A stretch of DNA of 17,932 bases. Source: a virus. The notes under the pieces were generated by a model. That model saw nothing but the letters and a program-made list of their open reading frames with translations. It was not told where the DNA came from and ran no database searches. Positions within the stretch are counted from its first letter, which is position 1; each line of letters begins with the position of its first letter. Of this stretch, positions 6,036-9,441 are shown one piece after another. The DNA is taken from the UHGV virus genome UHGV-1599718; one strand, written 5' to 3'. The position numbers were made by a program, and so were the translations under genes.

Positions 6036-6689
6036 ATGACTATATCTGTAGGTATTTTCAACGGAAAAGGCGGCGTAACCAAATCAACCATTGCTCGTGC
6101 TTTAGCAGTTGCTTATGCAAAGGCTGGCTGGAATGTATGCCTGATCGATATGGATGTGCTTAACGGAACGGTAACGCGTTGGGTACAACGCAGAATGGCC
6201 AACAATATCGAACCTGCAATCGCGGCGCAGCCGTGCGGCACGCCATCACAAGTCCAGAAAATCATCGAATCAGAAGTATACGACCTGGTTATCGTTGATG
6301 GCGGTGCCTACGCATCTGAATCAGTACCGAAGCTATCTGAATTTCTGGATATGGTTATTTTGCCAACCAGATTCTCTACCGATGACCTGGAAACCACCGT
6401 TAACACTGCTCACGGTATCGTTAAAAAGGGTGTACCAATCAAGAAAATTTGCATGGTGTTTTCCGGCGCGGCTGAAAACGAAGCTGACTATATTGAAGCC
6501 CAAGAGTACCTGGCTAATACGCCATACTTTGTTGTTGATAAGTACATTCCCCACAAGCCAGCTCTGAGCAAAGCTCAGGATAAGGGCTTAAGCCTCATTG
6601 AGTGCTCATACGTTGCGCCACGCAAAAAGGCAGACGACGTTATTCAGGGGATTATCAACCAGCTTGAGGCTCTGACTACTGCCGCGTAA
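6036..6689 (+). CDS. parA: ParA/ParF-type partition ATPase (deviant Walker A)
   Basis: GKGGVTKST deviant Walker A at the N-terminus and DLVIVDGG Walker B-like motif. ATG 6036 has GGAG 9 nt upstream; the track start at 6021 lacks an RBS. Confidence 0.85.
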   Translation: MTISVGIFNGKGGVTKSTIARALAVAYAKAGWNVCLIDMDVLNGTVTRWVQRRMANNIEPAIAAQPCGTPSQVQKIIESEVYDLVIVDGGAYASESVPKLSEFLDMVILPTRFSTDDLETTVNTAHGIVKKGVPIKKICMVFSGAAENEADYIEAQEYLANTPYFVVDKYIPHKPALSKAQDKGLSLIECSYVAPRKKADDVIQGIINQLEALTTAA

Positions 6690-7043: not shown

Positions 7044-7193
7044 ATGTCCGAGCAACAATATACACGGTTACTGAAAACTCGTCTAACCGACCTCAAACGG
7101 CTGCAAGCTGGTCGCTTATTTGCCCTGCTATCCACCAGGCCAGAATGGGTACGTGAAGCTGTTCTGAAAGGTTTAATGCGCTCCAGCGTTTAA
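7044..7193 (+). CDS. small hypothetical protein (49 aa)
   Basis: ATG at 7044 with AAGGGG about 8 nt upstream (the track start at 7011 is TTG); followed by a terminator hairpin. Confidence 0.35.
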   Translation: MSEQQYTRLLKTRLTDLKRLQAGRLFALLSTRPEWVREAVLKGLMRSSV

Positions 7194-7209
7194 ATTCAAC
7201 CATAAAAAA

Positions 7210-7225
7210 GGCCCCCGAAGGGGCC
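7210..7225. terminator. bidirectional intrinsic terminator
   Basis: ggcccc-cgaa-ggggcc flanked by an A-run on the left; on the minus strand the stem is followed by ttttttatgg. Confidence 0.5.
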
Positions 7226-7231
7226 TAATCG

Positions 7232-7354
7232 CTACTTGCTGCTAATGTTTATCGTCACATTCAGAGCGTTATCAGTAATCTTCCAACCCTCCCCATGTGG
7301 CGTAAACAAAGCTCCAGTAACAACGATAAAAATACACATACAGTATTTTTTCAT
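7232..7354 (-). CDS. possible small hydrophobic peptide (40 aa); speculative
   Basis: Internal ATG of ORF 7232..7414 gives MKKYCMCIFIVVTGALFTPHGEGWKITDNALNVTINISSK; ends at the minus-strand face of the 7210-7225 terminator. Weak RBS. Confidence 0.2.
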   Translation of the reverse strand: MKKYCMCIFIVVTGALFTPHGEGWKITDNALNVTINISSK

Positions 7355-7752
7355 TGTATGGCCCTTACAGGCCGTTTCACGGCATCCCCACCGACGAAAA
7401 CAACGCGAGAGCAAGCACGGCTGCTTGTGCTTGCATGTACGGCAACGGAGAATCCTCCCCTAAAGTCGGTGCCCGGGTGCGAATCGGCGGGAAGGTCCAC
7501 AGGTATTTTACGATTATTTTAAGATTAGTAATAGGAAAGAAATTAAACGAAAAAACTCGTTTATTTTCACAAAATCAGTAACCTACCCACAATCTGTGAG
7601 TTTGCAGGCACAACAAGAACCACAATTTTTTGAAGCATAATAGTGGACTATTATTACCTTTTGGGTAAAATTAACTTGCTGCTTGTGCTTGCGTGGTTGT
7701 TTATACAACAACGTAATGCTGAAAGGACCGCGAATCCGATCAGCACGAAAGA

Positions 7753-7779
7753 ACCGTCCTCAATAGGGCGGTTTTTTTG
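7753..7779 (+). terminator. intrinsic terminator candidate in a non-coding region
   Basis: accgtcct-caat-agggcggt (one G-U pair) followed by TTTTTTT. Confidence 0.5.
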
Positions 7780-7925
7780 TTTCTGCCTACCAATAAACCC
7801 ACGCTATGTGGTTGTCTCTGTTAAAATCCCGCCGTATTGACATGAATGCGCCATTGGTGGACACTTTCCGAGCCGTAGCAAAATCTACGGTCGGGATTGG
7901 AACCCCGATAATCATCATGGCGCAT

Positions 7926-7946
7926 ACCGCGTTAGCGGTTTTTTTA
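7926..7946 (+). terminator. intrinsic terminator candidate in a non-coding region
   Basis: accgc-gtta-gcggt followed by TTTTTTT. Confidence 0.5.
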
Positions 7947-8110
7947 TGCGTAAAGCACTGCTACACCCAAATTATGGTGGGGCGTGCGGGGGAGTCGTAA
8001 GACTCGCCGGATTCCATGGTGACCGGTAGTTCCAACCCTGTACGTCTCACCACCCAATGATTGGAACCAGACGGTGGTGAGTATCCTTAACCTTTAAGGG
8101 AACTATCACC

Positions 8111-8302
8111 ATGACAAACTTACCCCATGACTATTACGTCAACCTCGTAAAGATCCTTCTCAAGAAAGCCTCATACGCCGATAAATTACGCTTGGCTGAA
8201 ATCATCGAGCGCGAAGCTATGCGCATCGCCAGCAACGATAACGCTGTTTCTGACGCAAAAATCTCCCTCGTAACCAAAGTAGTTATGGGAGGTGCAAAAT
8301 GA
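8111..8302 (+). CDS. small hypothetical phage protein (63 aa)
   Basis: ORF whose TGA overlaps the ATG of the downstream Rha-like gene (ATGA); weak RBS. Confidence 0.45.
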   Translation: MTNLPHDYYVNLVKILLKKASYADKLRLAEIIEREAMRIASNDNAVSDAKISLVTKVVMGGAK

Positions 8303-9441
8303 AAACGCTTCCGACCGTTAACACCCTACAGCCTATCCTGCATAACCAGATCCCCGTTATCACTAGTGAACTTCTGGCGCAGTTATACGGAACAAAAATC
8401 AAAAACATTTCTGATAACTTTCTGAACAACTCGACGCGATTCGTAGCCGGAAAGCATTACTTTAAAATTGAAAAAAACGAATTACGCGAGTTCAAGAACA
8501 GACCCGAAACAATCGGGTTAGTTGGTAAAAATGCCCGCTCCCTAATTCTCTGGACCGAACGCGGGGCTGCACGTCACGCTAAAATGCTCGAAACCGATCA
8601 GGCGTGGGATGTATTCGAACGGCTGGAAGACTGCTATTTCAACCAGAACGCGCAAACGGCCGCGACCGTAACCGTCTCGCCAAACAATGCTCGTGAGGTT
8701 GTCGATACGCTCAACGCCAAACCGATGTTTTACATTAAGGTGTGCAATAACGAGCCACTCACAACCTCAGCCGATGTTGCCCAGGCATTCAGCACCACAA
8801 ACAATTCCATCGTTATGGCCATCGATGCGTTACGCATTCCTCGCACAGCTGCGGCACGTCATTTCTTTAAAGAGCAACGACCGCTGGAAGGAAGCGACCG
8901 CGAAATAACAATCTATCGCATGACAAAAGATGGATTTACCTTGCTCATGGAAAGTATCGACGGTCCAGGCGTGAAAGATATCAAGCTGGCCTACATTGAA
9001 GCCTTTAACGCTATCAGCAGCGTGTTAAAAACACAGTACGAGCGTGATCTGGCTAAACGACTGTACCAGGAAAAAACGATTATCCGCGCGGCAACAGAGC
9101 ATAATCGGCTATTAACGGAACCGAACTACAGGAAGGAACTAATCAAGGAGTTTGACAAGGCAACAGGGAAAACCAAAGCGGCGCTAAATCTGCCAGCAAT
9201 GACTCAGGAAAATGTGATATCAGCCTTACTTCTTGATCTGCTCAGAAACGCCAGAGCACTTATCAGCTTTGACGAAAACCTGAATCCTCAGCTCAAGCTA
9301 CTACCACCGACAGGCAAAGTAGTCGACCAGGCTGATCACAACAGCATACTCAGCGTTCTGGATGCAAACCTGCCAGCCAGGACACTACAGGATCTGATAA
9401 AAACATGTGCTGATAAGCTGGCACAGAAAAGCAGACCATAA
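8299..9441 (+). CDS. phage regulatory protein Rha family, antirepressor-like, with N-terminal ORF6N/KilA-N-like domain (380 aa)
   Basis: GGAGG RBS. N-terminal region (IPVITSELLAQLYGTKIKNISDNF ... SLILWTERGAARHAKM) resembles the ORF6N domain. Central region (PLTTSADVAQAFSTTNNSIVMAIDAL ... ITIYRMTKDGFTLLMESIDGPGVKDIKLAYIEAFNAI) resembles the Rha domain. Confidence 0.75.
   Translation: MKTLPTVNTLQPILHNQIPVITSELLAQLYGTKIKNISDNFLNNSTRFVAGKHYFKIEKNELREFKNRPETIGLVGKNARSLILWTERGAARHAKMLETDQAWDVFERLEDCYFNQNAQTAATVTVSPNNAREVVDTLNAKPMFYIKVCNNEPLTTSADVAQAFSTTNNSIVMAIDALRIPRTAAARHFFKEQRPLEGSDREITIYRMTKDGFTLLMESIDGPGVKDIKLAYIEAFNAISSVLKTQYERDLAKRLYQEKTIIRAATEHNRLLTEPNYRKELIKEFDKATGKTKAALNLPAMTQENVISALLLDLLRNARALISFDENLNPQLKLLPPTGKVVDQADHNSILSVLDANLPARTLQDLIKTCADKLAQKSRP

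Follow-up and report, generated by a model that had tools for sequence, protein, structure and literature searches.

In P1 and P7, the antisense RNA C4 blocks translation of a small open reading frame (ORF), icd, and thereby expression of the antirepressor gene ant, and alleles of the system differ in specificity (heteroimmunity); this immI mechanism was reportedly worked out by Citron and Schuster, by Biere and by Riedel between 1990 and 1993. When the IsrK RNA of Gifsy-1 is provided in trans, translation of the antirepressor increases over 100-fold, and complementarity of IsrK to a downstream C4-like RNA, STnc1160, was noted by the same authors (PMC4825925). The gene known as ryfA is timP, which in Salmonella specifies the mRNA of a 38-amino-acid (aa) toxic inner-membrane protein and is repressed by the divergently transcribed small RNA (sRNA) TimR; translation and toxicity of TimP have been demonstrated for this family (PMC7667032). 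The 5' end of TimR shows 18 nt of complementarity to the 5' untranslated region (5'UTR) of timP, over 60 nt upstream of the ribosome-binding site (RBS), and in every species examined an opposite-strand complementary stretch, followed by a terminator, was found upstream (PMC7667032). Here, I analysed a 17,932-nt stretch of viral DNA (UHGV virus genome UHGV-1599718; this whole stretch is hereafter called the window) and, within it, a 0.9-kb interval at roughly 7230-8105 which very probably comprises two adjacent, independent RNA-control modules of known kinds, namely a timPR-type toxin-antitoxin (TA) pair and a P1 immI-type switch.

The original prediction had proposed small RNAs or an RNA-based control element for this interval, possibly a type I toxin/antisense pair, and had suggested an Rfam scan as a check. 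The scan was run and returned three matches above gathering score inside the interval, which support the proposal: ryfA (RF00126) at 7500 to 7204 on the minus strand (142.3 bits against a cutoff of 80, E 4.7e-37, model positions 1-296 of 296), isrK (RF01394) at 7872-7945 on the plus strand (70.2 bits against a cutoff of 50), and C4 (RF01695) at 7970-8057 on the plus strand (84.3 bits against a cutoff of 45, E 1e-15, model positions 1-87 of 87). The guess at small RNAs was right; the division into two separate modules, the use of the repeat as a pairing site and the P1-type c4 switch had not been seen. No novel type of element is represented here; the interval holds new, unannotated members of the timP/ryfA, TimR, IsrK/c4-a1b1 and C4 families. 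RNA family membership, anatomy, pairing and covariation were read directly from the sequences, as described below. Sub-threshold Rfam matches to Phe_leader, Atu_C8, PhrS and sR58 were discarded as chance or generic hairpin resemblance, and all further ORFs there are mechanical ones lying across the RNA genes.

The timPR-like half of the interval has the following parts:

7204..7500, minus strand: timP/ryfA-like toxin mRNA (Rfam RF00126) with a ~146-nt 5'UTR containing stem-loops SL1-SL4; likely start at 7498-7500
7465..7471, minus strand: site 1 of the SL1-SL3 pseudoknot, CACCGAC; its partner is site 3, GUCGGUG, at 7389-7395
7420..7437, minus strand: predicted TimR-binding site in the 5' arm and loop of SL2 (7411-7434); RNA nt 64-81, 66 nt upstream of the AUG
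7232..7354, minus strand: TimP-like ORF of 40 aa plus stop with a hydrophobic N-terminal segment, from translation and alignment to K-12 TimP
7209..7226, minus strand: intrinsic terminator ending the timP-like mRNA, AGGCCCC-TTCG-GGGGCCT followed by a U-run, from a pattern scan; 3' hairpin of the ryfA model
7644..7671, plus strand: predicted sigma-70-like promoter of the TimR-like sRNA, TGGACT-16-TAAAAT, from a pattern scan
7678..7782, plus strand: predicted TimR-like antitoxin sRNA of ~105 nt, with seed 7678-7695, two hairpins and a terminator at 7753-7779

With chromosomal timPR (PMC7667032, PMC11228461, PMC13000454) the locus shares a full-length match to the ryfA model and an ORF of similar size with a hydrophobic N-terminus. 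This ORF, running from 7354 to 7232, is the 40-aa hydrophobic minus-strand peptide to which attention had already been drawn, and it starts with an AUG at RNA nt 147, at the conserved position, and spans 40 codons, where about 38-41 are expected for the family. Its product, MKKYCMCIFIVVTGALFTPHGEGWKITDNALNVTINISSK, aligns with K-12 TimP (MKIRCFCIVLIVSGALLTEV...SSK) and has the same hydropathy profile, the Kyte-Doolittle mean over residues 4-17 being 2.36 in the TimP-like peptide and 2.34 in K-12 TimP. Four variants of the peptide preserve the reading frame, and one of them carries an in-frame 3-nt deletion. No Pfam or PHROGs model matches the peptide, and its exact sequence is on public record solely as a 'hypothetical protein'. 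Judged from its sequence, the peptide is a TimP homolog and a predicted membrane toxin. The hairpin at 7209-7226 downstream of it is real, as predicted. It had been described as bidirectional, which found no support because its plus-strand continuation is TAATCG and has no T-run; the scan called a terminator on the minus strand only.

The published leader architecture (PMC11228461, PMC13000454) was then scored on an alignment (A1) of 18 timP leaders, seven from phage-plasmids and 11 chromosomal ones from six genera, with registers checked against the Salmonella +1 primer. SL1-SL4 together with the pseudoknot were paired in 93.3% of cells, as compared to 37-46% when the partners were slid. All seven pairs of the site 1-3 pseudoknot formed in 18/18 leaders, with compensatory changes at three of the seven, so that for example CACCGAC/GUCGGUG is found in the window where K-12 shows CGCUGGC/GCCAGUG. 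The site 2-4 contact, which frees the Shine-Dalgarno sequence, was 100% paired in the same 18 leaders. SL1-SL4, the pseudoknot and the site 2-4 contact are thus features in which the locus resembles chromosomal timPR.

A 14-nt direct repeat, CTGCTTGTGCTTGC, had been reported at 7421 and 7679, the first copy lying within a hairpin, GCAAGCAC-N8-GTGCTTGC. Both were recovered, the repeat at these two positions and nowhere else and the hairpin at 7411-7434. The full repeat is 15 nt long if identity is required (7420-7434 and 7678-7692) and 18 nt long if one mismatch is allowed (7420-7437 and 7678-7695); when 7195-8110 was shuffled 300 times with dinucleotides preserved, the longest exact direct repeat had a mean of 9.3 nt and a maximum of 14. 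What looks like a direct repeat on the plus strand reflects antisense pairing of two RNAs transcribed divergently. From its predicted promoter, the TimR-like sRNA would start at ~G7678, the first base of the complementary stretch, and the 5' end of the sRNA and the timP-like leader can form 15 Watson-Crick base pairs, or 18 with one G-U pair. As in timPR, a divergent sRNA with a TimR-homologous body would pair through its 5' end with SL2, at a distance of over 60 nt upstream of the RBS.

The ViennaRNA fold of 7678-7786 has a dG of -43.5 kcal/mol (z -5.4) and leaves the 5' 11 nt unpaired. The terminator predicted at 7753-7779 escaped the simple scan and is the terminal hairpin plus U-run (U7) of this fold; one of its G-U pairs becomes A-U in some relatives (GGGCGG to GGACGG). 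Over alignable positions, the body of the sRNA is 78-79% identical to both K-12 TimR copies, and it also resembles the Salmonella TimR template sequence. The RNAI (ColE1) model was matched across the TimR-like RNA as well (7684-7779, plus strand), at 26.7 bits against 47 (E 0.018), probably reflecting the generic resemblance of multi-hairpin antisense RNAs.

Two measures of pairing did not discriminate. Full-length RNAduplex gave -60.6 kcal/mol against a shuffle mean of -63.1, and the longest complementary run with G-U pairs allowed was 18, against a shuffle mean of 10.9 and a maximum of 19. Watson-Crick runs, exact-repeat shuffles, seed duplexes and covariation were used for this reason. The seed duplex with the pair's own timP reached -35.9 kcal/mol, which was matched by one of 500 shuffles. 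Three pairing-site alleles were found among 18 loci (plasmids, phages and IMG/VR contigs), with both copies carrying the same change each time (CTGCTTG/CTGCTTG, CTGTTTG/CTGTTTG and CCGCTTG/CCGCTTG). Cross-allele seed duplexes of -31 to -35 kcal/mol lie close to the cognate -36 to -40, and the three alleles are probably cross-reactive rather than distinct specificities. The chromosomal homologs of six genera have unrelated sequences at both pairing positions, which are again mutually complementary. Seed duplexes between the plasmid and K-12 systems amounted to -19.4 and -19.3 kcal/mol, with shuffle means of -20.7 and -19.4, and the two systems are predicted not to cross-react because these values are at shuffle background.

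The spacer between the divergent genes varies greatly between alleles and measures 177 nt in the window and 76-90 nt on chromosomes. A palindrome in it, ATAATAG-TGGA-CTATTAT (7638-7655), overlaps the -35 element of the TimR-like promoter, is kept in two of three spacer types and could be an operator for antitoxin transcription. In K-12 (L003), two TimR-like genes lie upstream of ryfA, at 557-656 and ~885-979; the annotated distal timR pairs best with K-12 timP (-36.2 kcal/mol) and the proximal copy more weakly (-26.0). A fragment resembling the timP 5' end, GGCCCTTTCCGCCG, sits between them (L003 ~738-760), which suggests that the K-12 arrangement arose from an old tandem duplication.

Taken together with the published mechanism, a leftward mRNA (~7500 to 7204) would encode a TimP-like membrane toxin of 40 aa, preceded by a structured leader of 146 nt whose SL4 would hide the Shine-Dalgarno sequence. 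Translation of the toxin would require the SL1-SL3 pseudoknot (sites 1-3) plus the site 2-4 interaction, and would be blocked once the 5' 15-18 nt of the TimR-like sRNA pair with the 5' arm and loop of SL2. Toxicity of the peptide and its repression by the sRNA are predicted here from homology and conserved pairing.

The second module follows on the plus strand and consists of:

7837..7865, plus strand: putative promoter of the IsrK/C4/ant operon, TTGACA-17-GACACT, read from the sequence
7872..7945, plus strand: IsrK-like leader RNA with a1 at 7897-7903, b1 at 7912-7920 and an intrinsic terminator at 7926-7939 plus a T-run
7970..8057, plus strand: C4 antisense RNA (RF01695) with b' at 8014-8022 and a' at 8029-8035
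8061..8113, plus strand: downstream C4 targets, a2 at 8061-8067 (UUGGAAC) and b2 at 8106-8113 (UCACCAUG)
8111..8302, plus strand: 63-aa ORF placed like icd of P1, with a stop that overlaps the antirepressor start (ATGA, 8299-8302)
8299..9441, plus strand: antirepressor with ORF6N and Phage_pRha domains (Pfam; PHROG anti-repressor families)

The operon promoter has a weak -10 element, which the scan missed; all relatives conserve this stretch. A plus-strand terminator had been predicted at 7926-7946. It was called by the pattern scan and belongs to the match to Rfam isrK (RF01394), a family characterised by three hairpins, the terminator included. Of the two single-stranded elements of C4, a' (GUUCCAA) pairs with both a1 and a2 over 7 bp each, and b' (CCAUGGUGA) pairs with b1 (9 bp, including one G-U) and with b2 (8 bp), which overlies the AUG (8111) of the 63-aa ORF. 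For this ORF, phrog_7886 (function unknown) was the sole match, and no Pfam or NCBIfam family was detected. Among 11 distinct sequences, three a-types (GGAAC, GGCGT and AGCCT) and three b-types occur in five combinations; a1, a' and a2 change together in 11/11, as do b1, b' and b2, and non-cognate pairing amounts to just 2-5 nt. The C4 allele is unlinked to the TimR/timP allele, one relative (L002) combining the window's C4 type with a type B TimR.

The arrangement is that of P1/P7 immI: C4 carries a' and b', a1/b1 lie upstream and a2/b2 downstream, alleles differ in specificity, and b2 overlies the start of a small ORF whose translation is coupled to that of the antirepressor. The window differs from P1 in the intrinsic terminator (the IsrK 3' end) that parts a1/b1 from C4, in a small ORF without detectable relation to a named family and in an antirepressor of the ORF6N/Rha type; DNA similarity to P1 covers just ~60 nt. 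With the Gifsy-1 isrK-orf45-anrP-isrJ region (PMC4825925) the window shares a single promoter, putative in the window, for a short terminated RNA and a read-through mRNA, an IsrK match above threshold, an antirepressor downstream and a C4-like stable RNA (STnc1160 in Gifsy-1) after IsrK. In contrast to Gifsy-1, no orf45 overlaps C4 in the window; as in P1, there is instead a separate ORF, of 63 aa, downstream of C4. A search for an orf45-type ORF downstream of IsrK found none, the first sizeable ORF being the 63-aa one past C4. A putative 27-codon ORF (7946-8029, plus strand) begins immediately past the IsrK terminator, extends across the 5' half of C4 and is far shorter than Gifsy-1 orf45. 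The leader has distant matches in 167 phage records, among them those of Stx phages, ST64B, phiV10, P1, D6 and SJ46, and the IsrK/C4 leader is a common, known device.

Transcripts of this module would begin at ~7872 and stop at 7926-7946, yielding a short IsrK-like RNA with the decoy sites a1/b1, or read through this terminator to yield C4 RNA. Pairing of a'/b' in C4 with a2/b2 would mask the start codon of the 63-aa ORF and so keep the coupled antirepressor off, and the short a1/b1 RNA may titrate C4 and relieve the block. Control of the antirepressor, like all other expression outcomes considered here, is predicted by analogy with the relatives of each RNA and from the conserved pairing.

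In five relatives, an insert of 670-795 bp separates the TimR-like terminator from the IsrK promoter, exactly at the position corresponding to 7786/7787 of the window (L002 6591-7130, L005 2030-2623, L007 2050-2622, L008 2081-2620 and L011 2035-2607). The insert codes on the minus strand for an HTH_3/XRE protein of 179-197 aa in which no S24 domain was detected. The window is without the insert but retains the adjoining palindrome, CCACGCTATGTGG (7799-7811), which could be an operator of this protein. Possibly, this HTH_3/XRE protein represses the IsrK/C4/ant operon locally and its gene has been lost from the window's plasmid.

Several points weigh against reading the interval as a timPR-type pair next to an immI-type switch. 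The peptide fails the curated NCBIfam model toxic_TimP (NF040796), reaching 23 bits (E 7e-5) against a cutoff of 45. It is a divergent TimP relative that falls under the naming threshold of the model, and this is probably why pipelines leave it unnamed. The site 1-2 helix (nt 57-61/33-37; 7439-7443 and 7465-7471), which stabilises the inactive mRNA conformation in Salmonella timP (PMC11228461, PMC13000454), is mismatched at two of five pairs in 7/7 phage-plasmid copies. The mismatched pairs, A35-C59 and U37-U57, are paired in 11/11 chromosomal copies, and the site 1-2 duplex has a dG of -2.0 to -3.2 kcal/mol in the phage-plasmid copies versus -3.9 to -6.4 in the chromosomal ones, with sites 1-3 and 2-4 being similar. 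Since the inactive-state helix is disrupted, timP control may differ in detail here; the helix is a mechanistic detail, not a family-defining trait. Independent covariation events at the TimR/timP pairing site are few because just three alleles with single paired differences were found. A timR deletion in Salmonella allows native TimP expression without growth arrest (PMC7667032), which makes a role in post-segregational killing uncertain. As for the second module, the Gifsy-1 mechanism cannot be transferred literally because no orf45-like ORF follows IsrK in the window. In P1, the switch further involves RNase P processing and Rho-dependent polarity.

The alternative that survives best concerns the second module and is possible, though doubtful: the IsrK-like RNA may be merely an attenuated leader in which a1/b1 act in cis for C4 maturation, or it may work by refolding of the Gifsy-1 type, and in neither case by titration of C4. 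Gifsy-1 activation has indeed been explained by refolding of the isrK-orf45 mRNA, and a test of the role of the C4-like STnc1160 gave no clear answer there (PMC4825925). The permissive scan matched c4-a1b1 (RF03163) at 7859-7911 with 38.2 bits, under the cutoff of 46.7. However, covariation of a1 and b1 with a' and b' extends to every allele, which argues for selection on pairing of C4 with the upstream sites. Given that the window has no orf45 equivalent, titration of C4 by the a1/b1 RNA is the most economical reading.

It is improbable that the ryfA-like transcript is mainly a non-coding regulatory sRNA, as RyfA is taken to be in uropathogenic (UPEC) and avian pathogenic (APEC) Escherichia coli and in Shigella, with the 40-codon ORF being incidental. 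In three reports, RyfA is treated as an sRNA affecting stress resistance and virulence (PMC8205139, PMC13188913, PMC10664665), and the score of the peptide under the TimP cutoff fits such a view. The same family includes RyfA1/RyfB1 of Shigella dysenteriae, in which the TimR homolog, RyfB1, reduces the amount of RyfA1 (PMC7667032); this pair is chromosomal and was described as a virulence-affecting sRNA pair, with no peptide considered. A non-coding transcript is nevertheless difficult to reconcile with an ORF at a conserved position whose hydrophobic N-terminus is conserved and whose frame survives a 3-nt deletion, nor would it explain the retention of an SL4 that sequesters the Shine-Dalgarno sequence, a translation-activating pseudoknot and the 2-4 contacts, which are sensible only for a translated mRNA; translation and toxicity are, moreover, on record for TimP of this family (PMC7667032).

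That the pair is a decaying, non-functional passenger captured from a chromosome is very unlikely. The divergent peptide, the broken site 1-2 helix and the unusually long spacer (177 nt versus 76-90 nt) could be signs of decay, yet ~60 plasmids and three phages retain the pair, its ORF, promoters and terminators intact, and compensatory changes are maintained in the pairing sites and the pseudoknot. A role of the repeat and hairpins as DNA (iterons, a partition site, or operators for par or immunity proteins), brought to mind by the direct repeats that centromeres and iterons typically have and by a location immediately past parA and a small gene in the parB position, is barely credible for a repeat with two copies 258 bp apart, placed exactly at the timPR pairing positions (sRNA 5' end and SL2), with a spacer that differs greatly among alleles and with chromosomal homologs that are unrelated in sequence there, yet mutually complementary.

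The surroundings bear out the placement of the interval between partition and antirepressor modules that the original prediction had given, with ParA on the left and the ORF6N/Rha antirepressor (8299-9441) on the right. Outside the two modules, the following were noted:

6036-6689: ParA, left flank of the interval
7044-7193, plus strand: 49-aa ORF between the gene in the parB position and the timP terminator, annotated in some relatives (WP_000003577.1), with a weak match to phrog_22022; the upstream junction is different in L004
11131-11783, minus strand: second addiction-type module on the replicon, a Gp49/HigB-like toxin (117 aa) plus an HTH_3 antitoxin (99 aa)

The small gene in the parB position lies, with parA, directly upstream of the interval. 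The window also codes for an IncFII-type RepA, a Ref-like nuclease and a cI-like HTH/S24 repressor, and together with ParA these identify it as a phage-plasmid. Relatives of a 916-nt query (7195-8110) were found in 59 PLSDB plasmids, a single match covering at least 80% of the query in 54 of them, and 11 plasmids showed at least 99% identity. The element is an IncFII-RepA phage-plasmid of roughly 48 kb; its family is hosted by E. coli, E. fergusonii and E. albertii, ranges from ~46 to 52 kb and is non-mobilizable. Yersinia pestis phages vB_YpM_39, 41 and 44 match the same query at 86-89%, and at least 80% of the stretch is held by plasmids in 67 of 5,426 complete E. coli genomes. Nothing was annotated under 7195-8110 in the public records inspected, and the TimR-like body had no exact match when contigs representing one genome per species were scanned. 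By these searches, the timPR-like module appears to be restricted to the phage-plasmid family.

Chromosomal timPR lies between sseA and sseB; the pair in the window is instead carried by a phage-plasmid, and it differs in its divergent peptide, its unrelated recognition sequence, its 177-nt spacer and the two site 1-2 mismatches. A functional analogue is hok/sok of plasmid R1, a plasmid-borne type I system counted among maintenance functions, with a toxin mRNA whose RBS is sequestered and an antisense RNA. It is unrelated in sequence, and hok needs 3' processing and the mok leader ORF, unlike timP, which is a purely structural switch (PMC13000454). Because the pair adjoins parA and the parB-position gene, plasmid maintenance or exclusion would be its likeliest role, one that is suggested by position, homology and conserved pairing.

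An earlier description of a mobile-element timPR (in Yersinia phages, or as a phage-plasmid ryfA) was not found in the literature collection searched, which is incomplete. What is new is modest: a mobile timPR copy, its predicted non-pairing with the host pair, a weakened inactive-state helix and combinatorial C4 alleles. Current understanding is not overturned by the RNA modules of the interval. An apparent 0.9-kb annotation gap in ~60 sequenced plasmids and three phages can now receive named features, and the reassortment of C4 loops (alignment A2: 7872-8113, loci L004-L016) predicts several heteroimmunity groups within one phage-plasmid family. The altered site 1-2 helix, present in every phage-plasmid copy examined, offers a natural variant for probing the published structural-switch model. 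Chromosomal timPR has a detailed mechanism and no established role, and the par-adjacent plasmid timPR provides a natural test case for maintenance or exclusion. Tentatively, the phage-plasmid timPR may be a mobile-element specialisation that does not pair with the host system, sits next to par and has lost its OFF lock, serving as a device for post-segregational killing or abortive infection. If so, the toxin mRNA would by default be in a translatable, TimR-sensitive state, and loss of the plasmid, hence of TimR, or a shut-off of TimR in phage attack or induction would quickly free the toxin. The timPR family would thereby gain a clear biological role, which is still lacking for the chromosomal copies.

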